This document shows positions 2,911 to 25,449 of a stretch of 32,000 nt of DNA, piece by piece. The translations under genes were made by a program, and so were the position numbers. Position 1 is the stretch's first letter. Each line of letters starts with the position of its first letter. Source of the stretch: Propionibacteriaceae bacterium. GTDB lineage: Bacteria > Actinomycetota > Actinomycetes > Propionibacteriales > Propionibacteriaceae. The stretch covers positions 1-32,000 of the forward strand of contig JAIRQE010000007.1 in NCBI GenBank assembly GCA_031256725.1, read 5' to 3'. The notes under the pieces are model-generated. The model made no database searches. It worked only from the letters and a program-made list of their open reading frames with translations, and was not told where the DNA came from.

Positions 2911-2934
2911 CCCCCTGATTTTCCCCTGAGGGGA

Positions 2935-2963
2935 GTGGTGTCTGTGGACACTCTTGTTCACTC
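2935..2963. repeat. copy 1 of a 29-nt exact repeat (gtggtgtctgtggacactcttgttcactc)
   Basis: Base-for-base identical to 29065-29093 by direct comparison. The flanks diverge on both sides. Confidence 0.9.
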
Positions 2964-2971
2964 GTACTAAA

Positions 2972-2992
2972 CTTGAGTCTAGTACGCTCAAC
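2972..2992. promoter_or_regulatory. HAIR-like (HspR-associated inverted repeat) operator upstream of clpB
   Basis: The sequence CTTGAGT-ctagtac-GCTCAAC compares with the consensus CTTGAGT-N7-ACTCAAG. The left half is perfect and the right half matches 5 of 7. It lies 25 nt upstream of the clpB ATG and is nested in a perfect 7-bp inverted repeat, CGTACTA (2963-2969) / TAGTACG (2980-2986). Confidence 0.5.
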
Positions 2993-3016
2993 TTTTGGAC
3001 ACATTCAAGGAGTGAC

Positions 3017-9360: not shown

Positions 9361-9708
9361 AACACTAAACACTCTCCGGACTTGCCGGGGGATTCAGATC
9401 TCCGCAGGATGGTTGATAGTGGGTTCGCTCCATTTTAGTGCCACCCATTTTAATGTAGATGCCACTAAAACGGTACTGGATGCTGTGAAGCGGAGATTCA
9501 TGGAAATCCTGATGAGATAAGAACAGGGTTCAACTGGGAATGTAAAGGTGTCTTTCCAAAGGTTCGAGTATCAAGAAATGCAGCGAGTTCTAGATGTGAT
9601 TGCGGTATATCTGGAGGATCTCTAAAACTTCCTCGACTTATTTGTGCTTATGGGTATACTTTATCTTCATAAGGTATACTAATCCGCACAAAGTGAGTGG
9701 AGAGGGTG

Positions 9709-11031
9709 ATGGCAACCTTTGAGAAGTGGATGATCGATCCAGACTGGACTTCGCCCTATTCGGAGGAGCGCCGAGGTGGGATGGTACGTCGCTATCGTCC
9801 TGATTTTTTATGTGAAGTACACAATGTCCCCTCGGTTGCCATTGCAGAATTGGCGGGGGATGTCGCATCACGTATAACGGCTTTTGGGGCCAATCTTGGG
9901 AGTCGAAACTTGGGTCTGCTGTATGCGACATTACTCAAATCTGAGTCAATTTCATCCTCCCAGATTGAGGGGTACAAGACTCCACCAAGTGAAGTGGTGC
10001 TGGCTGAGTTTGCACCTGAGATTGCCACTACAACTGCCCTCACCATTCGCAAAAACGTGTTGGCTTTACAAGAATCCCTTCGGCGGTTGAATGGCTTGTG
10101 GACTTCAGAAGCTATCCATCAGATCCTGGTAACGCTGCTTCCGAACCACCCGGAAGGGTATCGGTCCACGCAAGTGCGAATCGGGGGACGCTCACTGTTC
10201 AGAGCCGCTTTCGTACCTCCTCCTGCTGAGGATGTATCAATGCTGATGGACGATCTTATTGATTATGCAAATAGGGGTCCAGAATCCATCGTCACCAAGG
10301 CTGGTGTCGTACATGCTCAGTTTGAGACTATTCACCCCTATAACGATGGGAATGGTCGTACTGGTCGTGCTTTGGTACATGCATTGTTTGCCCGAGCAGG
10401 ATTGCTGCCAGGGGCTGTACTGCCCGTATCAACCGTGTTGAGGGTTCGCTCGGAGCAATATATTGGCGCGTTGACTCAGTATCGCTACGACAGTGAGGCC
10501 GGGCAAAGCCGCCAAGATGCAGTCGATGCATTTGTGCAAATCTTCGCCGAGGCGCTCAATGATTCAGTCACCTTAGCTCAACTGGTTGCTGAGGATGTCG
10601 CTACTATCGAAGCCGAGTGGTCGCAAAAAACCGCAGGTTTTCGCGCAGACTCCACTGCTATCTGGGCTTTGCGGTCCTTAGTGAACCTACCCGCACTCAC
10701 CATCGAATCATTGGCTGCAGAAACCGCAGTGACGAAGAGAGCTGCGAGTCGTGCTATCTCAAAGCTCGTCAATGTTGGCATCCTCGTCGAAGCCACAGGG
10801 AAGTACAAGAAAGCATCTATATTTCTAGCCTCACAGGTTTTGGATCTTCTCACGCAGTGCGAGCGCCGCGCAGCCAGCCCAGACTTTGACACCAAACTCT
10901 CTCAGCCCGCGATCCCAGCACCTTTGCCCGTCACCCCACTAGTGATTCTCTGTAGTGAACCTATGCCCCGCGCTGGTACGACTTGTGTACTTAATAAAGG
11001 TCATATGGGACGCCATAGAAGTCAACGCTAG
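9709..11031 (+). CDS. Fic family protein (class II, auto-inhibited AMPylase type) with C-terminal winged-helix region
   Basis: Fic motif HPYNDGNGRTGR at 10333-10368. N-terminal inhibitory-helix motif SSQIEG at 9955-9972, which fits (S/T)xxxE(G/N). I prefer ATG 9709 because ggagagg lies at 9700-9706. The track lists GTG 9697. Confidence 0.9.
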   Translation: MATFEKWMIDPDWTSPYSEERRGGMVRRYRPDFLCEVHNVPSVAIAELAGDVASRITAFGANLGSRNLGLLYATLLKSESISSSQIEGYKTPPSEVVLAEFAPEIATTTALTIRKNVLALQESLRRLNGLWTSEAIHQILVTLLPNHPEGYRSTQVRIGGRSLFRAAFVPPPAEDVSMLMDDLIDYANRGPESIVTKAGVVHAQFETIHPYNDGNGRTGRALVHALFARAGLLPGAVLPVSTVLRVRSEQYIGALTQYRYDSEAGQSRQDAVDAFVQIFAEALNDSVTLAQLVAEDVATIEAEWSQKTAGFRADSTAIWALRSLVNLPALTIESLAAETAVTKRAASRAISKLVNVGILVEATGKYKKASIFLASQVLDLLTQCERRAASPDFDTKLSQPAIPAPLPVTPLVILCSEPMPRAGTTCVLNKGHMGRHRSQR

Positions 11032-11098: not shown

Positions 11099-13552
11099 AT
11101 GACTACTGAGGATGTGCCTCTACAGCCGATCTCGGAAGAGTTGGGGGTGGGCATTCAGGATAAGCCGACACAGATGGTACGCAACCCGTCCGATCTTGTC
11201 GGTGTGATCGGGTGTGCCCTGGGGATCGTGTTGGTATGTCTGACGGTGGTCTATGCCCATAATACGACCGAGGGGATTTCGGAGGATGTCCAGGGGTTCG
11301 CGGTACTTCTGCAGAGATTGCTGTTTGTACCCGTGGCGGTACTCGACACCATAGTGATCCTATTCCCGCCTATCGCAGTGGGAATCGACCTTCTCGTGCG
11401 ACGGTACCCTATCGTGGCTCTTCGGGGACTGTTTGGTGCGATCGGGGGGATCATCCTCACGGTTGTGATGGTCTTCCTGTTGAACCTGGTCGCCCCCATT
11501 TCTCTCGTCTCAGGGCTATCTGTGCGCTTGGGCGGGTCTGATGTGATGACGATCCCACCCTATGTGGCGGCGATCACGGCTCTGCTCACGGCGGTGGCGA
11601 CTCCTGCCAGTCGTCGCTCAATCACATGGTCATGGAACTTCTTGTGGATGGCGGTGGTTGTGGCTGTGGTAACCACGACAGCAGCCCTTCCGGGGATGGC
11701 GATTGCGTTGCTGATTGGGCGTCTGGCCGGGTATGCGATTCGCTACGGAATGGGTGTTGCCTCGCAGAGGGCCTATGGGCAAGCACTTGTGGATGGGGTA
11801 CGCCGCGCAGGCTTTTCTCCTGTGATCCTTGATCGGGTTTCCACCATTGGTGTCAGGGAGACGGGCGAATCTATTCAGGGGGTACAAACCCCTCAATTCT
11901 TCTCGGACCATCGACTCTATGTGATGGAGACTGACGAGAAGAAGATGTACAACGTCATCGTTCTTGATGGGGATCGTCAGATGATGAGCATCCTCACTCG
12001 TGTATGGCGCTACCTTCGATCCAAAGCCATTCAGGGTGGTACGACATTGTCACTACGGCAAACAGCCGAACGTACTGCGCTCATCTCCTATGCTGTGAGA
12101 TCCTGTGGGGTCTCGACCCCGAATGTACTCGCTATTGCTGAGGCTGATGATTCGATGCTGATCATTCGCGAAGCGACCAAGGCATCGGTGTCTTTCGTGG
12201 ATCTGGATTCCGATCAGGTCAGTGATGAACTCCTGGATAGGATGTGGAATCAGATACTCAAGGCTCATCGGTGTGGGGTGGCCCACCGCTCGCTGACTCC
12301 CGAGTGTTTCAGAGTTTCCGCTGACCAAAAGGTGAGTGTACTTGGGTGGGAGTCTGGTGATGTTGCCTCCTCTGAACTGGCGGCCAGGATCGATCTGACC
12401 CAACTCATGGCAGTGATGGCAACCAAGGTGACCCCTGAGCGTGTACTGGCGTCAGCGGGCCGGGCTTTGGAGGAACAGGAGCTTGGGGAACTTGGTCCCC
12501 TCCTGCAGATTCCCGCGGTACCCAAGCAGACACGTGACAATCTTGGGGATGTGAAAGAGGTCTTGGCCCAATTGCGTACCCAACTCCTCTCGCACCTGCC
12601 TGACGCGGAGGTTGAGCCGGAGCAGATTGCTCGTGTGGGGGCGCGTACTGTTTTGATGATCGTTCTTGTAACGGTCGCCATCATCGTTGTTTTAACCTCC
12701 TTCAACCTCGCCGAGGTCGTGGATGCCATCCGGCATTCGGATTGGCGTTGGGCGGTGGGTGCCTTCGTGATGGGACTCATGGGTTTCGTGGGAGCATCCC
12801 TGACTCTCATGGCATTTTCCCCTGTCAAGCTGAGGTTCTGGCGGGCTGTCATGTGTCAGATCTCTGCCGCTTTCGTTGCTGTGGCTGCACCTGTGGGCCT
12901 TGGGCCTGCTGCCGTCAACGTCCGAGTCCTCACAAAGAAGCAAGTACCAACACCTGTTGCTGCGGCAACTGTGGCTCTCACCCAGGTCTCCAATATCGTG
13001 GTGACTGTTCTGCTTCTTGTCGTTTTGACCGCCATCACGGGTACAAGTCAACTCACCTCCTTTGAGGTTACACCGGGTGTACTCGTGGGCTTGATCGTCA
13101 TCGCAGCCGTCATCTCGGGGCTCCTGATTGTTCCCAAATCACGAACATGGCTCCTCGCAAGGCTGACCCCCATGCTCAAGCAAACATGGCCTCGATTAGT
13201 CGAACTCTTCTCCAACCCCTATCGGTTGGGTCTGGGACTCCTTGGCAACCTCATTGTGATCGTCTCCTATGTCACAGCTCTTCAGTGGGCAGTCTTCGCC
13301 TTCGGTCGAGATATCTCCTTCCTGGGTGCTGCGCTGGTCTATGTCATCGGTACGGCCGCAGGATCAGTGGTACCAACCCCTGGTGGTATGGGCCCCATCG
13401 AAGTTGCCGAATCAGCCGCCTTGGTATCCCTTGGAATCAACCCTGGTGTTGCTGCTTCGATAGTACTTCTCTTCCGCTTCGTCACCTATTGGATTCGAAT
13501 CCCCTTAGGCTGGGTTGCCTACAAGTCCGCCCAGAAACTAGGGGAATTGTAG
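11099..13552 (+). CDS. polytopic membrane protein: N-terminal TM bundle, central degenerate kinase-like domain, C-terminal LPG-synthase-TM/UPF0104 (MprF flippase-like) domain
   Basis: Hydrophobic segments cover roughly aa 30-225 and 525-817. The C-terminal part carries the PTPGGMGPIEVAE hallmark. The central segment has a kinase-like layout but reads AHRCGVAHRSLTPECFRV, with HRS at 12284-12292. Confidence 0.8.
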   Translation: MTTEDVPLQPISEELGVGIQDKPTQMVRNPSDLVGVIGCALGIVLVCLTVVYAHNTTEGISEDVQGFAVLLQRLLFVPVAVLDTIVILFPPIAVGIDLLVRRYPIVALRGLFGAIGGIILTVVMVFLLNLVAPISLVSGLSVRLGGSDVMTIPPYVAAITALLTAVATPASRRSITWSWNFLWMAVVVAVVTTTAALPGMAIALLIGRLAGYAIRYGMGVASQRAYGQALVDGVRRAGFSPVILDRVSTIGVRETGESIQGVQTPQFFSDHRLYVMETDEKKMYNVIVLDGDRQMMSILTRVWRYLRSKAIQGGTTLSLRQTAERTALISYAVRSCGVSTPNVLAIAEADDSMLIIREATKASVSFVDLDSDQVSDELLDRMWNQILKAHRCGVAHRSLTPECFRVSADQKVSVLGWESGDVASSELAARIDLTQLMAVMATKVTPERVLASAGRALEEQELGELGPLLQIPAVPKQTRDNLGDVKEVLAQLRTQLLSHLPDAEVEPEQIARVGARTVLMIVLVTVAIIVVLTSFNLAEVVDAIRHSDWRWAVGAFVMGLMGFVGASLTLMAFSPVKLRFWRAVMCQISAAFVAVAAPVGLGPAAVNVRVLTKKQVPTPVAAATVALTQVSNIVVTVLLLVVLTAITGTSQLTSFEVTPGVLVGLIVIAAVISGLLIVPKSRTWLLARLTPMLKQTWPRLVELFSNPYRLGLGLLGNLIVIVSYVTALQWAVFAFGRDISFLGAALVYVIGTAAGSVVPTPGGMGPIEVAESAALVSLGINPGVAASIVLLFRFVTYWIRIPLGWVAYKSAQKLGEL

Positions 13553-13637: not shown

Positions 13638-15677
13638 ATGGATTTCCTCAACGTCTATGACCAAGGGTTTGTACGGGTAGCAGCGCGCGTACTCCCTATT
13701 CATCTTGCTCAGCCTCATAAGAATGCTGAGGCACTGATTAACGACATTCGGGCTATGGATGCCGAAGGTGTGGCTTTGGTTGCCTATCCTGAACTGTGTA
13801 TTACGGGTTATTCATGTGAGGACCTCTTTCTTCAGCAAACCCTCCTGGATTCAGCCGAGGAAGCCATTGGTACCCTTGTGGAGGCTTCGGAAAACCTACG
13901 TCCCTATATCGTCGTGGGCGCCCCCATCCGCTACCAAAGTCGACTGTACAACTGTGCTGTAGTGATCCAAGGTGGGGAACTGGTCGGTATAGTACCCAAG
14001 AGCTATCTGCCTAATTATCGAGAGTTCTATGAGCGTCGATGGTTCGCTCCAGGTGATGACATCTGGGGAGTAATTGAGGTTGCGGGTCGCTCAACCATGA
14101 TTGACCCGAATGCGATCTGGGGGATTGAGGCAAGCGAGGGGTTCGCCTTCCATGTCGAGGTCTGTGAGGACATGTGGGTGCCAGTCACCCCCAGCGCCCA
14201 GGCGGCTCTCCACGGCGCAACAGTCTTGGTCAACATCTCGGGGTCGCCGATCACGATTGGTAAGGCTGATGATCGTAAACTCTTGGCCCAATCCACATCG
14301 GCTCGATGCAATGCAGCCTATGTTTTCACTGCTGCTGGGCCAGGGGAGTCTTCCACGGATCTGAGCTGGGATGGGCAGACCTTCATCTATGAGGCAGGGG
14401 AATTGTTGGGTGAATCTGAACGTTTCCCAAGTACAGCTTCAGGGACCATCGTTGATCTTGATTGTCGCCGCTTAGTACAGGAGAGGTACCGCCAGGGTTC
14501 CTTTGATGACAACCGTCGTACCAACTCTGATGAGGGCTTTTCTATTGACCATCGCGAGATTGAGCTTCCTGCAGGTGAGATTGGGTTCAGGAGGGAGTTG
14601 GATCGTTTCCCCTATGTTCCAGATGACCCAGCGCGTTTGGCCCAGGATTGCTACGAGGCTTACAACATCCAGGTGTACGGCCTTGTCCAGCGTATGAAAG
14701 CTATTGGATCACCCAAGCTCATTATTGGGGTTTCGGGTGGTCTTGACTCCACGCATGCCCTGATCGTCTGCGCCAAAGCCATGGATCTTCTGGGGCGACC
14801 ACGCTCGGATATTCTTGCCTTCACGATGCCTGGGTTTGCGACCTCGGATCAGACGAAGAGCTCGGCTTTGGCATTGATGGAGGCCATGGGTACGACTTAC
14901 GAAACCATCGATATTCGACCTGCAGCAACTCAGATGCTCGCCGATATGGGGCACGGTTTCGCTCACGGTGAGGAACTCTACGATGTGACCTTCGAGAATG
15001 TACAGGCGGGGTTACGTACCGACTACCTCTTCCGGCTCGCCAACCAACGAGGTGGAATCGTTGTGGGAACAGGGGATCTTTCCGAGTTGGCCTTGGGGTG
15101 GTGTACCTATGGTGTGGGGGACCACATGTGCCATTATGCGGTCAACACAGGTGTACCCAAAACACTGATTCAATACCTTATTCGATGGGTGATGGATGAA
15201 GGGCTCTTCAACCAGGCCACCAATGAGATTCTCAACACTATCCTCAACCAGGAGATCTCGCCAGAACTCGTACCAGCCAAAGAGGACGAAGGTCTACAAT
15301 CCACCGAGTCGATCATCGGCCCATACGCGCTCAATGACTTCTTCCTCTACCATTTCCTGCGACGAGGTGAAACCCCAACAAGGATCGCCTATTTGGCATG
15401 GAACGCCTGGAGGGACTCCACAACGGGTACATGGCCCACTTCATGGCCTGAGACTCGCAAGGTAGACTATAGTCTTGAAAGCATTCGGGGATGGCTTGAA
15501 CTCTTCTTGAAAAGATTCTTCGCGAACCAATTCAAGAGGTCTGCCCTTCCCAATGGTCCGAAGGTGAGTGCTGGTGGAACACTGTCACCACGTGGGGACT
15601 GGAGAATGCCTTCTGATGTGAGTGAGGCCACCTGGCTGCGCGAACTCAACAAGAACCTACCAAGCGAGGCAATGTGA
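13638..15677 (+). CDS. nadE: glutamine-dependent NAD+ synthetase (large, nitrilase-domain fused form)
   Basis: An N-terminal CN-hydrolase domain plus the PP-loop GVSGGLDSTHAL. At 679 aa it is colinear with mycobacterial NadE as I remember it. Confidence 0.96.
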   Translation: MDFLNVYDQGFVRVAARVLPIHLAQPHKNAEALINDIRAMDAEGVALVAYPELCITGYSCEDLFLQQTLLDSAEEAIGTLVEASENLRPYIVVGAPIRYQSRLYNCAVVIQGGELVGIVPKSYLPNYREFYERRWFAPGDDIWGVIEVAGRSTMIDPNAIWGIEASEGFAFHVEVCEDMWVPVTPSAQAALHGATVLVNISGSPITIGKADDRKLLAQSTSARCNAAYVFTAAGPGESSTDLSWDGQTFIYEAGELLGESERFPSTASGTIVDLDCRRLVQERYRQGSFDDNRRTNSDEGFSIDHREIELPAGEIGFRRELDRFPYVPDDPARLAQDCYEAYNIQVYGLVQRMKAIGSPKLIIGVSGGLDSTHALIVCAKAMDLLGRPRSDILAFTMPGFATSDQTKSSALALMEAMGTTYETIDIRPAATQMLADMGHGFAHGEELYDVTFENVQAGLRTDYLFRLANQRGGIVVGTGDLSELALGWCTYGVGDHMCHYAVNTGVPKTLIQYLIRWVMDEGLFNQATNEILNTILNQEISPELVPAKEDEGLQSTESIIGPYALNDFFLYHFLRRGETPTRIAYLAWNAWRDSTTGTWPTSWPETRKVDYSLESIRGWLELFLKRFFANQFKRSALPNGPKVSAGGTLSPRGDWRMPSDVSEATWLRELNKNLPSEAM

Positions 15678-17539
15678 TTGAACAGACGGGGTCGCCGTTT
15701 CAGGTAGATCTGCGTGGAATCGTGGATCTGCTGGCTCGGCATCTCTATTCGGGCCCCAATGTATACCTGCGTGAACTCCTTCAAAATGGTGTTGACGCGA
15801 TCACGGCACGCCGTAGTATCGATCCCAGTTTCGTGGGTGAGATCCGCATACGGTCCTGGGGTGGGAACGGTTTAGAGATCACTGACAACGGGATCGGGTT
15901 AACAACTGATGAGGCTCGAGAACTACTCGCCACAGTTGGCCATTCCTCAAAAAGGGACCTTGATTTGGGAATGGGCCGCGAGGAGTTCCTGGGACAGTTC
16001 GGGATCGGGTTGCTCTCAGGGTTCATGGTTGCGGACACTATTGAGTTGGTCTCACGATCTGCCAGGGATCTTACTGCTCCGGCAGTGAAGTGGACGGGTC
16101 ACGATAATGGACATTACGACCTCAGTGAGCTTGAACGCGCGAAGGAGGATCCAGCCGGTTCAGTGGTTCGTATCCTTCCTCGACGGGGGATGGAACACTG
16201 GCTCCTTATCGACACGGTTGTTTCCCTGGCTGTCGAGTTTGGTTCCTTGCTACCAGTGAACGTCATGATCGAGGTACCACTTGACAGCCCAGAAGGTGAG
16301 TCTATGACCCATGTCTGGCGTCGAGTATCTGAGGAAAAGATGCCCTGGGTGAAGGAGTACCAACATGAGATCGCACGCCGTGAGGCTTTGGGTCGCTTCT
16401 GTGAGAACACCATGGGTTTCACACCTATGGCGGTCATTGATCTTGATGTAGCGCTCACAGGACTCACCGGTGTGGCCTTCATCATCCCCGACGCGGTACC
16501 TCCAGGGTCAGGTGGATTCCATCGGGTCTACCTCAAACAGATGCTCCTGGGTTCCCGGGTTGCGGGCCTTGTACCCGAGTGGGCCTTCTTCGTGCGCTGT
16601 GCCATCAATGCCACAGGCTTGGCCCCAACAGCATCGCGTGAGCAGCTGTACAACGATGACGCTCTTCTTGCGGCTCAAGAAGCTTTGGCAGAACAGGTAC
16701 GGGCGTGGGTCGTGGAAACATTGACCACCCAATCCCCGCTGGCCAAGGAATTTGTACACACCCATCACCTGGCTTTGCGTTCCTTGTCACTCACCGATGA
16801 TGTTGTCCTTGATCTTGCTGCAGAGGTACTTCCCTTCGAGACGACTGAGGGGATCCACACTCTACGTGAGGTGATGGATCAACAGTCCGAGGTTGTCTAC
16901 ACCGAGTCCTTGGAGGAGTACCGTCGTGTCGGGGCGGTAGCCAGAGCCCAGGGGATTCTCCTTGTCAATGCTGGATATGTCTATGATGCTGAACTTATGG
17001 CGAAGCTGGCTACCCGTGAACAATTCAAGGTACGCCCGCTGTCCTCAAGCGACATCACCCAGGTTCTCAGCGAGATTCAGCCGGTACGAGAACTGGAGAT
17101 CCTTGAACAGGTGACAGCAGCCTCCGAGATACTGGAATCCTTGGATATTCAGCCGGTGATACGCTGTTTTGAACCTGAGGGTCTGCCTGCGATGATCCTT
17201 GATGATCCGGGTACAGATTTGGGTCATCAAGGTTCCGAATCCCTGATAGGCGATGAGGACATTTGGTCCGATGTCTTGGCTGAGTTCGCTGAATCGAATG
17301 ACCGTTCTCGTCAGATCATCTTCAATGACACCAATCCGACTGTACGGCGTTGGCTCTCACTCGATCCTCATACTGACTTCTTCAAGGCCGGGCTCCAGTC
17401 GATGTACGTCTCTGCCATGTTGCTCAGTGGGGAACCTCTGCGTCCACGCGAGGCTGAGATGATGAACGACTCCCTGGAAACATTCCTAAAATGGGGCCTT
17501 CCTCCGGAGGGAGGCGGACATGACGAGGTCCGTTCCTGA
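15674..17539 (+). CDS. HSP90 family protein (non-canonical HtpG paralog, GHKL ATPase)
   Basis: Bergerat-fold motifs LRELLQNGVDA, TDNGIGL and GQFGIGLLSGF. The length (621 aa) is HtpG-like. Its GTG start overlaps the nadE stop (GTGA at 15674-15677). Confidence 0.85.
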   Translation: MIEQTGSPFQVDLRGIVDLLARHLYSGPNVYLRELLQNGVDAITARRSIDPSFVGEIRIRSWGGNGLEITDNGIGLTTDEARELLATVGHSSKRDLDLGMGREEFLGQFGIGLLSGFMVADTIELVSRSARDLTAPAVKWTGHDNGHYDLSELERAKEDPAGSVVRILPRRGMEHWLLIDTVVSLAVEFGSLLPVNVMIEVPLDSPEGESMTHVWRRVSEEKMPWVKEYQHEIARREALGRFCENTMGFTPMAVIDLDVALTGLTGVAFIIPDAVPPGSGGFHRVYLKQMLLGSRVAGLVPEWAFFVRCAINATGLAPTASREQLYNDDALLAAQEALAEQVRAWVVETLTTQSPLAKEFVHTHHLALRSLSLTDDVVLDLAAEVLPFETTEGIHTLREVMDQQSEVVYTESLEEYRRVGAVARAQGILLVNAGYVYDAELMAKLATREQFKVRPLSSSDITQVLSEIQPVRELEILEQVTAASEILESLDIQPVIRCFEPEGLPAMILDDPGTDLGHQGSESLIGDEDIWSDVLAEFAESNDRSRQIIFNDTNPTVRRWLSLDPHTDFFKAGLQSMYVSAMLLSGEPLRPREAEMMNDSLETFLKWGLPPEGGGHDEVRS

Positions 17540-19457
17540 AGCAACCATCGCCATTGGGCGAGTTCGAGCGATGCCCTTTGGGCGCTCCCGTACAGAGGCT
17601 GCTGCTCGACAGGTACGCATTATCGAAGCCGAGGGGCCCGATGAGGTACGCGCCTATGCCCTTGAATCCCTCGTTGAAGCGCTCACGTGGGCTGGCGAGG
17701 CTGAGAAGGCATTGGTACCTTTCGTCAAACTGTTGCGGTGGTGGGATCTCCATCCCGAACACTTCGATTCAGGCGACCAAAATATCTTGTTCTGGGAGTT
17801 TGGTTGGATCGTAAACGACCTCAGTCGTACCCCCACTGTTTCTGTAGAGAAAGTGGATCGTGTCCTTGAGGACATGGAGAAACGCTTCTCCCTCGCCAAT
17901 CGGGGAATGGAAAGGGTCTGGTGTTCACGCTTGGAATGGGCACTGCTGCGCCGCTCAGAGGATTTGGAGAAGACCTTCACAACCTGGCTCACGATGCCCT
18001 TGGATGATGAGGATTCCTGTGTGGCATGCCATAAGGAGTACCACGCGGGGTACCTCTTGGAAATCGGTGATATTCACGGGGCGGTCGCCATCTTGGAGGC
18101 TGGGATCGTCGCTGAACTGAGTTGTTCGCGAGAGCCAGCATCCATGCTGTCGGTACTTGCGTGGTGTTACCTCGAACTGGAGCGCCTCGAAGATGCCGAA
18201 AAGGTACTTCCCACAGCGCTAGGAGAGTTGAAGTCTGCGACCTCGATGAGTGTACTCATCGCCTATGCGCGACTCTTTGAGGTCTTCGCTCGCGGACACG
18301 ATAAGACGCGGGCCCTAGAGTTAATCGCCAAGATCGCGGAGTCGATCGAAACCGCATCAGCCTATGTACGACTGGAGACTCTACGTCACCTCATCGCCGG
18401 GATGAGATGCCTAAGCGAGCAGGGGTATGCGCAGGAGACAATCACTTTTGGGTCCGACGAAGACACTATCGCTCATCTGGTTGACTCCTTCGACACCCAA
18501 GCCACTGAGCTATCCGAAGCCTTCGATCATCGCCACGGTAATACTGTTCAAGCAGACCGCTTGGCTCGATCACGCAAAGTTCACTCCACATCCAGGCCTC
18601 TTGTGTTCGTACAACCAGAGAGACCCAGTTTCGTGGCAGGTACAACCTCAGCCAGTCATGATGTGACCTGGAACCGCGACCGTGCTTATCTGGATCAAGC
18701 CGAGGATGCCTACCAGGATGGGGACCACACCCAGGCCGCCGACCTCTACCGTATTGCTGCCGAACAGGCCCAAAGTGAGGGCCTCCTTTTGGAGGCAGGA
18801 TGGTGCTGGGCAGAGGCGGCGCGCAATGCCCAAGAGATCTCGCAATTCGATGTGGCAGCCCATGATTACATGGAAGCCCAAACGAGACTCAAAGCCGCTG
18901 GGGCAACCCTGGAAGAGATCACCCCCATGTTTATTGCCTGGGCACCCGTGGTACAAGAAAACCACTACCGCAAATATGTGGATATGGCCCTCTACGACTA
19001 CCCAACCCCAGCGCGCGCCCATGGTACAGACAAGATCGAGGAGATACTTCCGATCGTCTTCCAGTCATCGATGGTGAATACTCCGTTGATTAAGAAGTAC
19101 GTCCTAGCGCGTGCGGAACTCAGGGATTCGGTGGCCCGGGTTCTTGCAACCTGGGGAAGCCTTGAGGATAAGATTGAAGCCATCGACATGGTGGAGGAAT
19201 CAGCCACACGCTTCACCCTTCTGGGGCGTTCAGATGCCGCAGCCCACAGTTGGTGGCTGGCCGCCCGATTGGCAGCGGAAGTCAACCCGGCCCTAGTCAC
19301 CCCGAATTACAGCAAAGCACTCCAAGAATTCAAAGCAGTAGGCCAACGCGGGCGAGTCTTTGGGGCTCAGGTTGCGGGCGACTATGGCGAGTATTTGAGG
19401 ACCCTCGGACGCTACGATGAAGCCTCCAAAGTCGAAGAATCCTGGAAGGACGAGTGA
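17520..19457 (+). CDS. 645-aa alpha-helical repeat (TPR-like) protein of unknown function
   Basis: ATG 17520 follows GGAGGGAGG (17506-17514) and overlaps the HSP90-paralog 3' end by 20 nt. The sequence is helix-rich, with TPR-like stretches such as AEDAYQDGDHTQAADLYRIAAEQAQ. Confidence 0.7.
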   Translation: MTRSVPEATIAIGRVRAMPFGRSRTEAAARQVRIIEAEGPDEVRAYALESLVEALTWAGEAEKALVPFVKLLRWWDLHPEHFDSGDQNILFWEFGWIVNDLSRTPTVSVEKVDRVLEDMEKRFSLANRGMERVWCSRLEWALLRRSEDLEKTFTTWLTMPLDDEDSCVACHKEYHAGYLLEIGDIHGAVAILEAGIVAELSCSREPASMLSVLAWCYLELERLEDAEKVLPTALGELKSATSMSVLIAYARLFEVFARGHDKTRALELIAKIAESIETASAYVRLETLRHLIAGMRCLSEQGYAQETITFGSDEDTIAHLVDSFDTQATELSEAFDHRHGNTVQADRLARSRKVHSTSRPLVFVQPERPSFVAGTTSASHDVTWNRDRAYLDQAEDAYQDGDHTQAADLYRIAAEQAQSEGLLLEAGWCWAEAARNAQEISQFDVAAHDYMEAQTRLKAAGATLEEITPMFIAWAPVVQENHYRKYVDMALYDYPTPARAHGTDKIEEILPIVFQSSMVNTPLIKKYVLARAELRDSVARVLATWGSLEDKIEAIDMVEESATRFTLLGRSDAAAHSWWLAARLAAEVNPALVTPNYSKALQEFKAVGQRGRVFGAQVAGDYGEYLRTLGRYDEASKVEESWKDE

Positions 19458-19918
19458 TGGGATATTTCACCAGACCTGAGGGTCTCACCTCTGATTTAGC
19501 CCCACTGACAACGGGCCGGGTCACTGCCTGCTTGGATTCCCACCAATGGCATTACGAGGTTGCTGACGAGGGGGATGTCGGCGGCTGGTGGGACGGGTAC
19601 TGGTTCGTCTTCTCATTTCGTGGAAAATCCAAGGAGATCTTCTTCGCCCATGCGATCTGGAACCGAGGGGTACCGGCATCTGAGTTCAACCAGGCTGTCC
19701 TCTATGCCAACGAGTGGAATTCTGAACACCTGTGGCCCATGATGAGTGTACGTGAGAGGGATGACACCATCGTTGTACTCACCGACTTCTCAGTCGATTA
19801 TGGTTTCGGTCTCACTGATGAGCAGCTTGATCTCCACATCCGTTGTGCCATCGACACCATGGTTTCTGCCCTCACCTGGATGGATTCCAAGTACCCTGAC
19901 TACGTCGACAACAAGTAG
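19454..19918 (+). CDS. YbjN-domain-like protein (secretion-chaperone-like fold family)
   Basis: About 150 aa and acidic, with W/F-rich blocks WWDGYWFVFSF and ANEWNSEHLWP that I associate with actinobacterial YbjN-family proteins. GTG 19454 or ATG 19457 overlaps the upstream stop. Confidence 0.65.
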   Translation: MMGYFTRPEGLTSDLAPLTTGRVTACLDSHQWHYEVADEGDVGGWWDGYWFVFSFRGKSKEIFFAHAIWNRGVPASEFNQAVLYANEWNSEHLWPMMSVRERDDTIVVLTDFSVDYGFGLTDEQLDLHIRCAIDTMVSALTWMDSKYPDYVDNK

Positions 19919-20135
19919 AAAATGGGTGTACGAAGTCGCCCATTTCCCTGGATTGAAGCTAAGCCCAATCTACAAGGTGATGTTAAATTACAGGCGAAAT
20001 GAAGGTTTCGTGTTGTATTAGTACACAGTATGTTATTATGAAAAAGAATATTCAGAAATTGAAGGAACCTATTCAGTTTCTATTAAATCAGTGATTCAGT
20101 TCTCGTGGATCCCCATGAGGTGTTTTGTTTGATGA

Positions 20136-21026
20136 ATGCAGGCTTATAGTATGGTGTTGACTTTGTCGAATCGTATCGTGATTTTTTGTATGATTATGAC
20201 GACGGCGTTTTCGCTTTGTGCTTGCTCTTTTTCGTCGTCACCTGTGAATGAGTCTTCTGATATACCTGCGGTTCCTTCTGCGGTGCTTGATTGGTCTAGG
20301 TCAACGATCGTCTTGCCATTGGATAGATATGGCATGAGTATTGCTGAAGAGCAGGTGGTTCTTACTGCTCAGGTTATTGTTCTTTGGGGGTGTCTTGTGC
20401 CAGGTGTTGACCTGTCGGAGGAAGCGCTTCGACAAGCAAGAAAAATGCTTACGGTCGATGATTCGGTCAACAATTGGTTGTACGGGGCATGGAATGCCAG
20501 CTATATTGCGAGTCATGGTGTCCGTGGATCGGAGATCTCTGCGTGGCCATCTTTCCCGAATGTTGATGACGACACATATTACTCCTGTATTAGTGAACGT
20601 GCATTTTTAGACATGGCTGTAGTGAATGGAACTAGGTATCCAGGTGAGGCAAATACAGTGACATTGGCCCTCATTCGCTACTCGGTCGAGGCTCACGATA
20701 ATACGCTTGCTGACCCGCGCTTCATCGAGTTGGTGCAGACTCGTTCACAATGCGTTCGCGACCAAGGTTACACGGTTTACGAGGATGAACTTGGGGGTAT
20801 TGATCTGGGGTCTTCGTCGACAGAAGAGCAGTTTCTCGCGGCTATGCTTGCCGAAGCAACGTGTAGTGATCAGATGAGTTTTACCCAGCGGGCGGCTGAC
20901 ATCAATGTTGAGTATGAGATGCAGATTATCCGTGAACACGAAGCTGAGCTAGTGACTATCAAACATATCGCGGACGAGCGTGTCGCTAGAGCTACTCAGA
21001 TTTTGGAAGAGGTTGGGGTTCTGTAG
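20136..21026 (+). CDS. putative secreted lipoprotein, unknown function
   Basis: N-terminal hydrophobic segment ending in LCAC, followed by a Ser-rich linker (lipobox-like). G+C is lower than neighbours, at 40% and 48% in the two lines I counted. The start is uncertain. Confidence 0.55.
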   Translation: MQAYSMVLTLSNRIVIFCMIMTTAFSLCACSFSSSPVNESSDIPAVPSAVLDWSRSTIVLPLDRYGMSIAEEQVVLTAQVIVLWGCLVPGVDLSEEALRQARKMLTVDDSVNNWLYGAWNASYIASHGVRGSEISAWPSFPNVDDDTYYSCISERAFLDMAVVNGTRYPGEANTVTLALIRYSVEAHDNTLADPRFIELVQTRSQCVRDQGYTVYEDELGGIDLGSSSTEEQFLAAMLAEATCSDQMSFTQRAADINVEYEMQIIREHEAELVTIKHIADERVARATQILEEVGVL

Positions 21027-21050: not shown

Positions 21051-21548
21051 ATGAGTAAAAGATCTGTTGCGATACTTGCTGCTGTTGTTGGGGTGCTGAT
21101 AGGTGCTTTAAGCGGCTCTTTGGTGGTAGCTTGGTTGTATCCACCAGTTGACACGGGTCCAATTGACAATGCGACAAAGGCCTTGCTAGTGACTGGAGTT
21201 CTTACTCTCTCATCGTTAACAGCAGGAACAACAATGTTTCTCTCGGTCCAACATCGCTCCGCTGAGATCGCACTCAGACGTGCAATGGGTGCTTCCAGGG
21301 GTTCAGTATTCCGACTCTTCGCTGTGGAAGGAATAGCCATCGGCATCGCCGGTGGTATCCTCGGAACAGCCCTTGGCATCGGGTTAACGATGTCGATAAC
21401 CTACCTCAACCACTGGCCTCTTGCATTGGGACTGGACATTGTTGCTCAAGGGGTTTTGGTTGGTCTCCTCGCGGGAACGATCGCCTCAATTGTCCCAGCA
21501 ACGTACGCCTCACGTCGCGATCCCGCCCAAATCCTGCGGGCAGTGTAA
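21051..21548 (+). CDS. minimal FtsX-domain membrane protein (4 TM, essentially no extracytoplasmic domain)
   Basis: TM1 (SVAILAAVVGVLIGALSGSLVVAWLY), a loop of only ~13 aa, then the FtsX core with EIALRRAMGASRGSVFRLFAVEG and two further TMs. Total length is 165 aa. Confidence 0.7.
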   Translation: MSKRSVAILAAVVGVLIGALSGSLVVAWLYPPVDTGPIDNATKALLVTGVLTLSSLTAGTTMFLSVQHRSAEIALRRAMGASRGSVFRLFAVEGIAIGIAGGILGTALGIGLTMSITYLNHWPLALGLDIVAQGVLVGLLAGTIASIVPATYASRRDPAQILRAV

Positions 21549-21638
21549 TCTCTTACCTTCTGAAGTCATAGTGAATGGGTGATACATCAGGGGTGGACTG
21601 TTTCATACTCGGAACGTGGATGCGAGAGAATTGTCCTT

Positions 21639-22289
21639 ATGGCTAAAGCACGTACCCCTATTCTCAAGGTCTCCAAGCTACAGAAGGCTTACGGGGACCA
21701 TGTTATTGTTTCCGACTTCTCTATGGACCTCTGGCCTGGGGATGCTGTGGCATTGACGGGGCGTAACGGTGCTGGAAAGTCCACGATCCTGCGATGCTTG
21801 GTTGGGGCCGAGGCCGCTGATGATGGAACCATCGAAATCGATGGGCTGCCTTTGAGGGAGGCTGATGCACGGGTACGAGCAGCCATGGCAACCGTCATTG
21901 ATGACTTGGATTTCTTCCCAGATCTGTCAGTGGTCGAACACCTCGACTTGCTAGCCCGTGCCTATGGGTTGCCTGATCCTGAGGTTGCTGTGGATGCGAT
22001 CTTGGGGGAGGTGCTCCTAGTACCCCAATCAGGTCAGCTACCCGGAACACTATCGTCGGGGCAGCGTCGACGCTTAGCCTTGGCCACTGCTTTCATTCGT
22101 CCCCGCAAGGTACTCGTCCTTGATGAACCTGAGCAGAGACTTGATGTTGAGGGCGTGGAGTGGCTAGCCAACAGGCTCAAAGAGGAGCGAGACCAGGGAT
22201 TGGCGATCATTATGGCAAGTCATGAGCCCAAACTGGTCGAAACTGTGTCCACCCGTACTATCCATGTGGGCGGTGCGCGTAATGGCTAA
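21639..22289 (+). CDS. ABC transporter ATP-binding protein
   Basis: Walker A GRNGAGKST, signature LSSGQRRR, Walker B VLVLDEPE and H-loop SHEP. I prefer ATG 21639 (MAKARTPILKV) over the track start at 21579. Confidence 0.9.
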   Translation: MAKARTPILKVSKLQKAYGDHVIVSDFSMDLWPGDAVALTGRNGAGKSTILRCLVGAEAADDGTIEIDGLPLREADARVRAAMATVIDDLDFFPDLSVVEHLDLLARAYGLPDPEVAVDAILGEVLLVPQSGQLPGTLSSGQRRRLALATAFIRPRKVLVLDEPEQRLDVEGVEWLANRLKEERDQGLAIIMASHEPKLVETVSTRTIHVGGARNG

Positions 22290-24090
22290 GAAGCGCAAGC
22301 CTCAAGGGTACAAAGCCCAACCGGTTGAGAAACCCGAGGCCGTCGAAGAAGTCGTGGTCGAAGAGGTGGTTGAGACCATTAATGAGACCGAACCGCCTGT
22401 GGAATTCCCGAAATGGGAGCATTCTCTCATTGATCTGGAGCCGGAACCCGTCTATGAACGGGATCTAAGGAATCTTGTACGCGACTGGCGGCGTGGACGT
22501 GCTACGAAGACCCTGCGCCAGGTGCTTGCCGATGGCTATGTCACAGTCTTTGCCATCATCATGATTGTTGCGATGCTGGGAAGTGGTGTGTGGACAGCCC
22601 AAGGGGCTGCGGCCGCATGTGAAACCGGGTCATGCCAGGTGGGACGTACCCTACTCCCGTGGGTGGCGACTGCAGCTGCCTTCTGTTTGACGGCCATGGC
22701 TTCTCGAATCTTCGGCCCTGTTGTGGCTTCTGCTGCTGAGGGATTCTGGTTGATGGATGCCCCAATTCGTCGAGGCCGCTTGCTGTGGAAGCGCCTGGTG
22801 GGAGTCGTTCTGGCTGTGGCTGGGATCGCTGCTGCGTTGGGTGGACTCATGGCTGCGTTGACTGGGTACCAGATCGATGACATCTGGCGCTGGGCGATCG
22901 CTATGGGTGTGGGTGCCGCAGGTATCACTGCCCTTGCTGCTGCTGAGCAGACCTGGGGGCGTACATGGGTCATCTCCTTGATTCAGTGGGTTTTCGGCCT
23001 CGGGGCAGTCTCGGTTTTGTTTGTCGTTGTGAGCTATGCGGCCGGGTGGTTCGGGGTAACTATTCCCCAGATCTCAGAAACAACTACTGTTGTTTGGGTT
23101 GCGTTGGGTGGGGGCGTACTCCTGCTCATTGGGGGCTTCATTGCACTCCAGCGCTTGGGGAGGATCCATCGGGCCCGTCTGGTCTCCGGTGGTACCCTCG
23201 TCTCCGGGATGCAGGGCGCAGCCTTCGCTATGGACTTCGGTTTGATGAGGGACATCCTTGTCGAACGTGATGCGATACGTCGAGGCCATGTACGTCCGGC
23301 GCGCGGTTCCGGTTCGGGTGCGAATGCTCTCGTGTGGCGTGAAGTGCAACGACTGTGGCGCTATCCAAAGAGGATCATGCTCATTGTGGTTTCAGTGGTC
23401 GTACCCTATGCAGTGGCTGCCCTCGGATTCCACACCTTCAATCCCTTCATTTCATCCCTGATCCTGCTTATCGGGTTCGTACCCATGCTTGGATCCATGA
23501 GGATCATGACTCGTACCAAGGGCCTAGCGCGCACCCTTCCGCTCTCCAATCCCCAGATCCGCAAAGCCATGGCAACCGTCCCAACAATCTTTGCCGTGTT
23601 GTGGGCCGCAGCAACAACCTGGGCCTTCTGGGGAATGGGGAACCATGGTACCCAAACACTCATGCAGGCCTTCGTCACCGCAGGGCTCACCGCCGCTGCT
23701 GGTCTGCTAGCCGCTATTCGATGGGTGACTGCCAAGTCGGCCAACTACCAGATGCCCATGATGCAGACAGGCTTTGGGGCCATGCCTCCGGGCTTGATCT
23801 TCAACCTTTTCCGCGGCATAGACATCGTCGTGATCGTAACTGGACCACTCCTTCTTGGTTGGTCGCCATGGATCTCAGGGGTCATCGCCGTCATCTGCAC
23901 TTTCGCCCTGTCGGGGCAGTACTCCATGGAAGAGATGCAAGCCATGCAGAAAGAAATGGAAAAAGAGAAAGCACGCTCTGGAGGTACGGGCACAGGCCTC
24001 TTCGGTGGCGGTAGAGCCCCCGCAGCTCCGGTCACCAAGCAGAAGATTGCTCCCCCCAAGGGATACCGCAGCCCACCAGTTGTGAAATAG
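22282..24090 (+). CDS. large polytopic membrane protein partnered with the ABC ATPase (DUF-type; possibly DUF6297-like)
   Basis: ATG 22282 overlaps the ATPase stop by 8 nt. It has an acidic VEE-rich N-terminus, about 12 hydrophobic segments, and a Lys/Pro-rich tail. Confidence 0.75.
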   Translation: MAKKRKPQGYKAQPVEKPEAVEEVVVEEVVETINETEPPVEFPKWEHSLIDLEPEPVYERDLRNLVRDWRRGRATKTLRQVLADGYVTVFAIIMIVAMLGSGVWTAQGAAAACETGSCQVGRTLLPWVATAAAFCLTAMASRIFGPVVASAAEGFWLMDAPIRRGRLLWKRLVGVVLAVAGIAAALGGLMAALTGYQIDDIWRWAIAMGVGAAGITALAAAEQTWGRTWVISLIQWVFGLGAVSVLFVVVSYAAGWFGVTIPQISETTTVVWVALGGGVLLLIGGFIALQRLGRIHRARLVSGGTLVSGMQGAAFAMDFGLMRDILVERDAIRRGHVRPARGSGSGANALVWREVQRLWRYPKRIMLIVVSVVVPYAVAALGFHTFNPFISSLILLIGFVPMLGSMRIMTRTKGLARTLPLSNPQIRKAMATVPTIFAVLWAAATTWAFWGMGNHGTQTLMQAFVTAGLTAAAGLLAAIRWVTAKSANYQMPMMQTGFGAMPPGLIFNLFRGIDIVVIVTGPLLLGWSPWISGVIAVICTFALSGQYSMEEMQAMQKEMEKEKARSGGTGTGLFGGGRAPAAPVTKQKIAPPKGYRSPPVVK

Positions 24091-24402: not shown

Positions 24403-25449
24403 ATGGCCCGACCTCATTCCCATCGACTCGGTATTATCGCCGGGTTGACCTCGGCTGTGCTCTTCGGGGCGGGTACGCCCATCGCTAAGGTACTGCTCAA
24501 TTCGGTGAGCCCCTGGCTATTGGCGGGGTTGCTGTACACAGGCTCGGGTCTTGGGTTGGGGCTTTATCGTGCACTGCGCCGCTCACCTAGAGTACGCATT
24601 CCCCCGACGGAGATCCCTCCTCTGATCGGAGCCATCTTTTTTGGAGGGATTCTTGCGCCGGTACTTCTCATGTTTGGGCTGTCGGAGCTACCAGCATCGG
24701 GGGCTTCGCTGTTGTTGAATGCTGAGGCTGTGTTGACAGCATTGCTTGCGTGGTTTGTGTTCAAAGAGAATGTGGATCGACGGGTTGGCCTGGGGATGCT
24801 CGCTATCGTGGTTGGTGCGATCATCGTATCCATACCGGGTGGAGTTGAATGGGGATCCTTGTGGCCGTCACTAGCAATAGTGGGTGCCTGCCTATGCTGG
24901 GGGATCGATAATAATCTCACGCGCAGGGTTTCCCTCAATGATGCTGTGTGGTTGGCTGCACTCAAAGGGGGAGTGGCTGGGCCTGTGAATCTGAGTCTCG
25001 CCTTTGTGATAGGTGCGATCCTGCCCCCACTGATGAATATTGCTGCTTCTATGGGGGTCGGGCTTCTTGCGTACGGGGTAAGCCTGGTGTTGTTCATTGT
25101 GGCCTTGCGTCACCTGGGTACGGCGCGGGCCAGTGCCTATTATTCTGTGGGGCCCTTCTTCGGTGCGGCAGTAGCCTTGGCGATGGGGGAGTCACTCACC
25201 TGGTGGCTGGCTATCGCAGGGGTACTCATGGCTGTCGGGGTGTGGCTGCATCTAAGCGAAAACCATACCCATGAACACACCCATCGTGGGGAAACCCATG
25301 ACCACTGGCATCGCCATACCGATGATCATCACGACCACACCCATGAGGACCTACCTCCCGGTACATGGCATCGCCACGAACATGTACACGCGTCAGTGAC
25401 CCACTCCCATTCACATTATCCCGACTCTGAGCATCGACATACCCATTAA
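24403..25449 (+). CDS. DMT/EamA-type transporter with a histidine-rich C-terminal tail
   Basis: About 10 TM segments in an EamA-like arrangement. The last 66 residues (25249-25446) contain 23 His in HxH-type spacing. Confidence 0.75.
   Translation: MARPHSHRLGIIAGLTSAVLFGAGTPIAKVLLNSVSPWLLAGLLYTGSGLGLGLYRALRRSPRVRIPPTEIPPLIGAIFFGGILAPVLLMFGLSELPASGASLLLNAEAVLTALLAWFVFKENVDRRVGLGMLAIVVGAIIVSIPGGVEWGSLWPSLAIVGACLCWGIDNNLTRRVSLNDAVWLAALKGGVAGPVNLSLAFVIGAILPPLMNIAASMGVGLLAYGVSLVLFIVALRHLGTARASAYYSVGPFFGAAVALAMGESLTWWLAIAGVLMAVGVWLHLSENHTHEHTHRGETHDHWHRHTDDHHDHTHEDLPPGTWHRHEHVHASVTHSHSHYPDSEHRHTH

Follow-up and report, generated by a model that had tools for sequence, protein, structure and literature searches.

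What is encoded by a run of overlapping genes in which an Hsp90-family ATPase is followed by a large helical-repeat protein and a small YbjN-like protein? The run occupies positions 15674-19918 of a 32,000-nucleotide stretch (hereafter, the window) from a Propionibacteriaceae bacterium (GenBank assembly GCA_031256725.1, contig JAIRQE010000007.1, positions 1 to 32,000 of the forward strand), which is part of a 60.7-kb contig of a metagenome-assembled genome (MAG). An earlier note, made from the letters of the window alone, had proposed that these three proteins, chained to nadE, form a dedicated three-part chaperone machine. We propose that the locus is one case of a widespread two-gene core module, comprising the Hsp90-family gene and the helical-repeat gene (hence, the partner), with lineage-specific accessories. 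Thus, the idea of a dedicated system survives as a two-gene core with accessories, whereas that of a fixed three-part unit does not, as YbjN varies in position and is absent from distant clades.

In a mechanical listing of open reading frames (ORFs), nadE, the Hsp90-family gene, the 645-amino-acid (aa) helical gene, and the YbjN gene are four successive plus-strand ORFs whose boundaries all overlap. The features of the locus are as follows.

13638-15677, plus strand: nadE, glutamine-dependent NAD+ synthetase, 679 aa (NF002730, 1017 bits)
15674-17539, plus strand: Hsp90-family ATPase of the NF010683/PRK14083 type, 621 aa, GTG start (profile score, residues, and fold)
17506-17514, plus strand: Shine-Dalgarno-like GGAGGGAGG within the Hsp90 gene, 5 nucleotides (nt) 5' of the partner ATG at 17520 (sequence reading)
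17520-19457, plus strand: 645-aa helical partner gene, ATG start (ORF listing)
17520-18575, plus strand: partner N-terminal domain, residues 1-352, a conserved, family-defining predicted alpha-solenoid (AlphaFold2 and homologs)
18018-18137, plus strand: partner Cys signature C167-V-A-C170-H171 ... C202-S-R-E205-P206 (alignment, codons checked)
18576-18683, plus strand: predicted disordered linker of the partner, residues 353-388 (AlphaFold2)
18684-19457, plus strand: predicted C-terminal TPR-like domain of the partner, residues 389-645 (AlphaFold2 and Foldseek)
19457-19918, plus strand: YbjN-family protein, 153 aa from the ATG at 19457, or 154 aa if it starts at the GTG at 19454 (PF10722)
20101-20130, plus strand: terminator-like hairpin with a T-run in an AT-rich spacer 3' of YbjN (pattern scan)

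The junctions noted earlier were largely as described. The nadE stop and the Hsp90 start share 4 nt in the ATGTGA at 15672-15677, and the Hsp90 stop (17537-17539) lies beyond the partner ATG at 17520, so that these genes overlap by 20 nt with GGAGGGAGG inside the upstream one. The partner and YbjN also overlap (the junction reads GAGTGATGG at 19452-19460), but the GTG start assumed for YbjN has to be corrected: the N termini of homologs (MGYFT[KR]PDG) suit the ATG at 19457 better, which probably reduces the overlap from 4 nt to 1 nt. The hairpin 3' of YbjN is weak evidence for a possible operon end, as terminator-like hits around this spacer are no commoner than in shuffled sequence.

We then asked to what family the ATPase belongs. 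It scored 686 bits on the NCBIfam model NF010683/PRK14083, named "HSP90 family protein" (cutoff, 455), over residues 4-610 of 621, whereas it missed the canonical HtpG model NF003555 (133 bits versus a cutoff of 371), to which it aligned within residues 8-411 alone. Since it fails the HtpG model and passes NF010683, it is not an ordinary htpG, and the divergence from canonical HtpG that had been read from its LRELLQNGVDA motif is thereby confirmed. The GHKL ATP-binding motifs claimed for it are likewise present: the catalytic Glu (E34), the Mg-binding Asn (N38), the adenine-binding Asp (D71), and the lid segment G107-Q-F-G-I-G112 align to the catalytic positions of TRAP1 and HtpG (alignment over residues 8-390) and are invariant in 62 homologs, as is the catalytic Arg loop of the middle domain (S321-R322-E323), which matches the SRELLQ loop of TRAP1. 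The AlphaFold2 model of the protein (predicted local distance difference test [pLDDT], 80.7) found E. coli HtpG in a full-length Foldseek match (2iop; E = 5e-30), and full-length HtpG, TRAP1, Hsc82, Hsp90, and GRP94 were aligned over 630-670 columns with E values of 1e-30 to 1e-25 and template modeling (TM) scores of 0.44-0.60. By its model, the protein thus has the three-domain N-M-C architecture of Hsp90, including the C-terminal dimerization domain. Its score on NF010683, retained catalytic residues, and full-length fold indicate an Hsp90-type ATPase that is complete, probably active, and of another lineage than HtpG. Chen et al. 2006 (PMC1525184) divided bacterial HtpG into groups A, B, and C, assigned Actinobacteria and Firmicutes to A and C, and noted two copies in Streptomyces coelicolor; NF010683 is probably their "Group C."

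To determine whether the neighbors of this ATPase are conserved, we used an alignment of the Hsp90 paralogs to scan genomes, one for each GTDB species. This yielded at least 585 confirmed stretches, from which 80 loci were kept; these include Propionibacteriaceae MAGs, Cellulomonas, Cellulosimicrobium, Sanguibacter, Oerskovia, Microbacterium, Bifidobacteriaceae MAGs, Nocardia, Actinomadura, Nonomuraea, Micromonosporaceae, and others. Neighbors were assigned by iterative profile searches on six-frame ORFs with refined start sites, and 72 loci could be tested for a downstream partner, nine others ending too soon. In all 72, the partner lies directly 3' of the Hsp90 gene on the same strand. Measured from the stop of the Hsp90 gene, the partner begins at -20 nt in 7 loci, at -4 nt in 44, at -1 nt in 10, and at +2 to +63 nt in 11, so that the start and stop overlap in 61 of the 72. 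A reciprocal scan of metagenomes, anchored on the partner, found the Hsp90 paralog directly 5' of it in every one of the 74 loci with room for it. Independent checks gave the same pair in Cellulomonas flavigena DSM 20109, in whose gene calls a 165-aa YbjN protein, a 622-aa Hsp90 paralog, and a 647-aa partner follow one another, the last two overlapping by 4 nt, and Kitasatospora, in which a 644-aa Hsp90 paralog (39% identity over the full length; 830 bits on NF010683) overlaps a 1022-aa partner by 1 nt. Short gene overlaps are common in bacterial operons; nevertheless, the recurrence of this one in 61 of 72 independent loci and again in Paenibacillus (see below) goes beyond chance operon packing. 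Pairwise identities of the Hsp90 paralogs correlate with those of their partners (r = 0.946 over the 72 loci), and we propose from these sequence comparisons that the two genes are coinherited and that the module is vertically inherited.

Two further records deserve comment. A 666-aa metagenomic protein (P0257) was considered as an Hsp90-partner fusion and rejected: the first ~130 Hsp90 residues are absent and the partner is cut after ~130, which looks like frameshifts in a metagenome contig. A 6.6-kb record from human feces labeled "UNVERIFIED: Bacteriophage sp." (MT837560.1, our locus L167) carries an Hsp90 paralog (627 bits) and a partner at 1930-5591 and is probably a contig of bacterial, not phage, origin.

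The pair is not confined to Actinobacteria. Translated searches (tblastn) with the partner against plasmid and phage collections recovered matches to its N-terminal domain in several records that carry a plasmid label but are in fact pieces of chromosome or chromids, and these led to Bacillota. In Listeria monocytogenes NCTC7974, the divergent gene fri is followed by lmo0942 (an "HSP90 family protein" of 601 aa; 799 bits on NF010683), lmo0941 (324 aa), and its paralog lmo0940 (320 aa), with gaps of 11 nt between lmo0942 and lmo0941 and 31 nt between lmo0941 and lmo0940; 3' of these are a gene of the SUKH (SMI1/KNR4) family and then one for a low-molecular-weight tyrosine phosphatase. Both lmo0941 and lmo0940 match positions 11-350 of the actinobacterial partner profile (162 and 159 bits, respectively). 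In Paenibacillus cellulosilyticus, an Hsp90 paralog (710 bits on NF010683) overlaps a 353-aa partner by 4 nt. The Listeria and Paenibacillus partners correspond to the N-terminal domain alone, and a profile made from these three Bacillota proteins recovered a family found across the genus Listeria and in Paenibacillus and Gorillibacterium, with members annotated as hypothetical or TPR proteins. Of the triad claimed earlier, therefore, the Hsp90-helical pair holds in both scan directions, in Kitasatospora, and in a second phylum, whereas a fixed triad does not, the YbjN gene being variable. The earlier note had named an ordinary htpG with freely varying neighbors as one finding that would undo its proposal; the HtpG model was failed, and the helical partner is adjacent in all of the testable loci scanned. 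We also noticed that the 394-kb Listeria monocytogenes "plasmid 2" (NZ_LR134399.1, our locus L165), which bears the core genes fri, trmL, queG, and lmo0937-lmo0942, appears to be a mislabeled piece of the chromosome.

What, then, is the partner? No Pfam or NCBIfam model matched the 645-aa protein above threshold, TPR_12 and SNAP being sub-threshold matches in its C-terminal domain. Its AlphaFold2 model (mean pLDDT, 90) is all helical, with domains at residues 1-352 and 389-645 and an intervening segment (353-388) that is free of helix and strand and has a pLDDT of <50 at residues 367-385; as modeled, the protein is a two-domain TPR-like solenoid. Searches of solved structures by sequence, profile, and Foldseek recovered generic TPR, SNAP, and PPR solenoids alone (TM, 0.1-0.4); they gave neither a specific relative nor homology to a named co-chaperone. 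A set of 1.84 billion representative proteins yielded 1226 relatives of the partner (564 with E values of <=1e-10), in most of which residues 1-350 are the best-matching stretch. By these alignments, the N-terminal ~350 aa are the family-defining part, for which neither Pfam nor NCBIfam has a model. The C-terminal domain varies: the partners of Nocardia, Actinomadura, and Micromonosporaceae, 890-980 aa in length, have it in repeated form, those of Bacillota lack it, and its conserved columns are mainly Ala and Gly, plus E432, D536, R540, H576, and W579. The earlier description of the protein as a helical-repeat scaffold therefore stands as regards the fold and falls as regards a generic scaffold, since what is conserved is an N-terminal domain with three invariant cysteines.

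The signature of this domain can be written as W..W / C-x-A-C-[E/D/H] / C-x3-P / FDxR. C167 is conserved in 274 of 274 family members, C170 in 271 of 274, C202 in 271 of 271, and P206 in 268 of 271; position 171 is E, D, or H in 198 of 274, and W92, W96, W156, R122, F335, and R338 are near-invariant among the ~274 members. An alignment of the two Listeria proteins with the Paenibacillus, Kitasatospora, and window partners shows W..W, W-x10-C-x-A-C, C-x3-P, and FDxR in all of them. In the model of the window partner, a helix (168-181) begins at C167 and C170, and the loop leading into another (207-219) contains C202; the cysteines thus fall in consecutive interhelix loops (159-167 and 198-206), an arrangement compatible with a shared site without being proof of one. 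The invariance of three cysteines together with an acidic residue or His suggests a zinc or redox site, and we regard the cluster as a candidate for either.

The third gene is a clear member of the YbjN family (PF10722; 68.3 bits versus a cutoff of 22, residues 22-143 on profile positions 4-124 of 126), and a search of PDB sequences with it detected no solved homolog. Its position differs among clades: it lies 3' of the partner in the clade of the window, whereas in Cellulomonas, Cellulosimicrobium, Sanguibacter, Microbacterium, and others it lies 5' of the Hsp90 gene, the start of which it typically overlaps by 4 nt. An additional tandem pair of YbjN genes is often found near the loci of these latter genera, and the window protein is closest to the class located 5' of the Hsp90 gene in Micrococcales (median identity, 40%, versus 34% for the tandem-pair class). 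Profile searches of the loci found no YbjN in those numbered L062-L080 or in Paenibacillus; it is absent from the Nocardia, Actinomadura, and Micromonosporaceae loci, and the YbjN profile matches none of the proteins of the Listeria operon, which has the SUKH-family gene 3' of its partner genes instead. Fusions of the partner to YbjN occur in the proteins P0028 (797 aa) and P0046 (961 aa) and in the isolate genomes of Leucobacter sp. 1207-22 and Microterricola gilva, whose 545-547-aa proteins combine the partner N-terminal domain with YbjN. To judge from this distribution, YbjN is a lineage-restricted accessory that lies outside the core and, by its fusions, is functionally tied to the partner. 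As a separate observation, in Cellulosimicrobium, Sanguibacter, and Oerskovia (L035, 11919-12725; L046, 11816-12451; L032, 11820-12506), the partner gene is separated from the tandem YbjN pair 3' of it by a conserved minus-strand gene for a protein of ~210-270 aa.

The linkage to nadE did not extend beyond the clade of the window. Proximity of nadE to the Hsp90 gene is limited to the Propionibacteriaceae loci L001-L008; of these, L005 has it 1.7 kb away and L008 has it on the opposite strand. As the linkage is confined to this clade, nadE is not part of the conserved module, and we ruled it out as a functional member.

The genomic context of the module is native and housekeeping in character: the G+C content of the cluster (0.535-0.559) equals the average of the window, in which three other patches are lower, and the neighbors are housekeeping genes. 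Those of the Cellulomonas-type loci are miaB, miaA, dapF, hflX, and an amino acid ABC transporter (the conservation of miaA, dapF, hflX, and the transporter being explained by local synteny), those in Listeria are fri, trmL, and queG, and the one in the window is nadE. Searches against PADLOC-DB 2.0 gave no match for the partner or YbjN and, for the ATPase gene, N-terminal GHKL matches of at most 28 bits alone.

How does this pair compare with systems already described? Bacterial Hsp90 is generally described as acting without dedicated co-chaperones, and its cellular role is poorly defined; we know of no dedicated partner gene for HtpG. Canonical HtpG (E. coli; NF003555) shares with the window protein a GHKL N-terminal domain, a middle domain with a catalytic Arg, and a C-terminal domain, but the two are merely 18-20% identical, the window protein falls below the HtpG cutoff and into the separate family NF010683, and it is the latter family that has an invariably adjacent partner gene. 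The combination of an Hsp90 ATPase with a TPR-like helical-repeat protein recalls the eukaryotic Hsp90 and its TPR co-chaperones (Hop/Sti1, PP5, Tah1, and Sgt1); the possible Cys-based metal site recalls the zinc-binding CHORD co-chaperones; and the tail of the window family is, like that of eukaryotic Hsp90, flexible and often acidic at its end. Unlike the eukaryotic pair, however, the one described here has no MEEVD-type motif, no TPR model above the cutoff, and no carboxylate clamp; its conserved part is a new N-terminal domain rather than a three-repeat TPR clamp; and the partner is operon-encoded and translationally coupled. It thus resembles a eukaryotic Hsp90 with a helical-repeat co-chaperone, yet it fails the defining MEEVD and clamp-TPR tests. 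Enterobacterial YbjN/AmyR, with which the third gene shares its PF10722 domain, is by contrast a stand-alone, stress-associated gene with no known link to Hsp90, whereas the YbjN genes described here are operonic and sometimes fused to the Hsp90 partner; the fold of the family is similar to that of class I type III secretion chaperones. By analogy, the few invariant cysteines of a proteostasis-linked protein, including a CxxC at a helix start, may be compared to the zinc-thiol switches of Hsp33 and the actinobacterial anti-sigma factor RsrA, a likeness that involves no sequence or fold relation to the partner. Finally, defense-related GHKL ATPases (MORC/paraMORC, the BbrUII/HgiDII restriction enzymes, and TmtA) share the GHKL fold of the first ~130 residues but differ in scores (32 bits against a cutoff of 550), in the presence here of the Hsp90 middle and C-terminal domains, and in the lack here of a nuclease partner.

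The reading we prefer, to which we give a probability of roughly 0.55, is that of a chaperone machine of the Hsp90 type and an obligate partner encoded in its operon. The N-terminal domain of the partner would serve as a dedicated co-chaperone, adaptor, or regulator, possibly one sensing metal or redox state, and its C-terminal domain and YbjN would be lineage-specific docking accessories. This reading builds on what was observed, i.e., the family memberships, the folds, the invariance of the motifs, adjacency in both directions and overlap over two phyla, the YbjN fusions, and the native context; that the proteins bind each other, that a metal is bound, that there is activity as a chaperone or co-chaperone, and that clients are specific we infer. 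In such a machine, the NF010683-type Hsp90 with its intact catalytic residues would act as an ATP-driven dimeric clamp. The translationally coupled partner, through its predicted ~350-aa alpha-solenoid N-terminal domain with the invariant Cys, Trp, Arg, and FDxR residues, would bind the clamp at a fixed stoichiometry and regulate its ATPase cycle, deliver a restricted set of clients, or both. The Cys cluster might bind a structural zinc or serve as a thiol-based redox switch. The C-terminal TPR-like domain could offer additional protein-docking surfaces in Actinobacteria, and in Micrococcales and Propionibacteriales, YbjN, whose fold resembles that of type III secretion chaperones, could add another one attached to the N-terminal domain. 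A bolder version, which we put forward tentatively and consider less probable, is that the Cys-marked N-terminal domain protein is the first dedicated obligate bacterial Hsp90 co-chaperone, namely, an adaptor that would sense zinc or redox state and gate either the ATPase cycle or client loading in the NF010683 Hsp90 lineage, from Actinomycetota to Listeria and Paenibacillus, with YbjN (in Actinobacteria) and possibly SUKH (in Listeria) as client-delivery accessories.

Several results count against a co-chaperone role. The tails of 81 homologs of the Hsp90 paralog are variable in length and sequence and loosely acidic, and a conserved MEEVD-like motif is absent from them. We had considered the acidic tail as an analog of MEEVD and dropped it, since the tails lack conservation and end in codons that overlap the ribosome-binding site of the next gene; because of this overlap with the downstream Shine-Dalgarno sequence and start, the acidity is possibly a by-product. 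The best Pfam TPR match of the partner reaches 20.7 bits against a cutoff of 30.1, and the Lys/Asn pattern of a carboxylate clamp was not seen in the conserved columns of its C-terminal domain. Evolution is quicker in the partner than in the Hsp90 paralog (mean identity, 0.41 versus 0.56 over the 72 loci). The partner also occurs apart from the ATPase: Actinomyces oris (NZ_CP116225.1; our locus L168, 3217-7934) has two YbjN-like genes and then a partner of 1011 aa, a variant uncoupled from the ATPase in that no Hsp90 paralog is present within 5 kb; a Propionibacteriaceae MAG (L002, 14805-16928) has a second, solitary partner (707 aa, 603 bits) ~3 kb 3' of a complete module and no second Hsp90 gene to go with it; and one weak partner match (P0060) has no Hsp90 neighbor. 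No credible operator of HspR (HAIR) or HrcA (CIRCE) was found within 250 nt 5' of the operon in 79 loci, which yielded a single HAIR-like site (L069, 4 mismatches) and zero CIRCE-like sites, placing the module outside the classical heat shock regulon. Lastly, a 2019 population-genomics paper (PMC6901971) listed lmo0941 as a hypothetical protein of unknown function and flagged signals of selection in it, which would also fit a role in conflict.

These points have to be weighed against what else could account for the pair. The helical protein might instead be a dedicated client, such that the Hsp90 paralog mainly folds or assembles it, YbjN acts as a holdase, and the real activity resides in the Cys-bearing N-terminal domain. 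Strict adjacency with translational coupling is a pattern shared with dedicated chaperone-substrate pairs; the invariant polar and aromatic residues of that domain (R24, R122, D162, E205, R338, three Cys, and three Trp) look like those of an active or ligand site; and the solitary partner of A. oris and the second copy in L002 would find a ready explanation. TPR-like solenoids, however, generally fold readily and are usually scaffolds, Foldseek gave no enzyme-like match for the partner, and a 600-aa ATPase kept over two phyla for the sake of one client would be costly; with the caveat that client and co-chaperone are not separable computationally, we think this unlikely. We attach the same low credence to a conflict or stress-signaling system, in which the GHKL ATPase would be a switch, the repeat protein a fast-evolving sensor, and YbjN or SUKH a small immunity-like or adaptor protein. 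The faster divergence of the partner and the selection signals in lmo0941 are in keeping with it, as are the tandem duplication of the Listeria partner ahead of a SUKH gene, a gene with a type VII secretion signal domain divergent from and 5' of the C. flavigena locus (see below), and the weak N-terminal GHKL matches to restriction enzyme and TmtA models. The SUKH family is associated with toxin immunity; the paper on SUKH proteins does not mention Hsp90. Yet the operons inspected contain no effector domain (nuclease, protease, TIR, or pore former), PADLOC found nothing for the partner or YbjN and sub-threshold GHKL matches for the ATPase, and the latter has the full Hsp90 fold rather than one of the MORC/MutL type; moreover, the locus is single copy, with native G+C and housekeeping neighbors or a place in the genus core, and its divergence broadly follows taxonomy.

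By far the least probable explanation is that of an ordinary htpG with coincidental neighbors, the overlaps being those of a compact operon. The frequency of short overlaps in bacteria and the lineage specificity of the nadE linkage would accord with it, but the protein fails the HtpG model and passes NF010683, YbjN-partner fusions exist, and adjacency in 146 of 146 testable loci in both scan directions, with the second phylum in addition, effectively excludes it.

The NF010683 subfamily and the YbjN family are already known. The obligate pairing, the partner family with its Cys signature, and the link to YbjN appear to be undescribed, to judge from a search over 8 million papers, which found no account of the Hsp90/partner pair. 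There is thus a whole Hsp90 subfamily, named by NCBI and unstudied in that literature, with an invariably adjacent and usually translationally coupled partner gene, and the partner itself marks a gap in the databases, having a strictly conserved Cys signature and no Pfam or NCBIfam model. The pair is present in tractable organisms, i.e., Listeria monocytogenes (lmo0942 with lmo0941/lmo0940), Cellulomonas, Nocardia, and Kitasatospora. If the partner is a co-chaperone, the view of Hsp90 co-chaperones as a eukaryotic invention would need revision; should it prove to be a client or a sensor, it would still define the function of an unexplored Hsp90 lineage.

Several other genes came to our attention. 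In C. flavigena (CP001964.1; our locus L081, 5519-7233), the gene divergent from the YbjN-Hsp90-partner operon on its 5' side encodes a 476-aa protein with a weak T7SS_signal match (PF21725) and is accompanied by several small unannotated genes; together they may form a secreted-toxin cassette, seen in this genome only. In the window itself, scans for Rfam families and tRNAs found none. Upstream of the locus, a plus-strand ORF at the window edge (54-935), which has a pretoxin HINT domain (PF07591, 61 bits) and then ~100 unassigned C-terminal residues and lies in a lower-G+C stretch (0.48-0.50), resembles the C-terminal portion of a polymorphic toxin. An inverted repeat resembling HAIR (CTTGAGTCTAGTACGCTCAAC at 2972-2992, with 2 mismatches to the HspR operator consensus) precedes clpB (2954-5596), suggesting that this clpB is regulated by HspR and truly starts 3' of the TTG at 2954. 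At 9697-11031 (plus strand), a Fic-domain protein with a C-terminal helix-turn-helix (PADLOC SoFic, 205 bits) lies in a patch of 0.47 G+C and may be an acquired single-gene defense candidate; it is followed at 11099-13552 (plus strand) by an 817-aa membrane protein in which residues 520-804 alone match the MprF-type LPG_synthase_TM domain, leaving ~500 N-terminal residues unassigned. Downstream of YbjN, the kilobase of lowest G+C (0.46) holds a plus-strand ORF of 296 aa (20136-21026) with a lipoprotein-like N terminus (LCAC) and no match in Pfam, NCBIfam, or PADLOC. A tight plus-strand cluster at 21051-24090, comprising a 165-aa fragment of an FtsX-like permease, an ABC ATPase, and a 622-aa DUF6297 protein (432 bits), appears to be an uncharacterized actinobacterial ABC-associated module. 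Finally, the EamA-family transporter at 24403-25449 (plus strand) ends in a His-rich tail of ~60 residues (HTHEHTHRGETHDHWHRH...), the sequence of which suggests metal binding.

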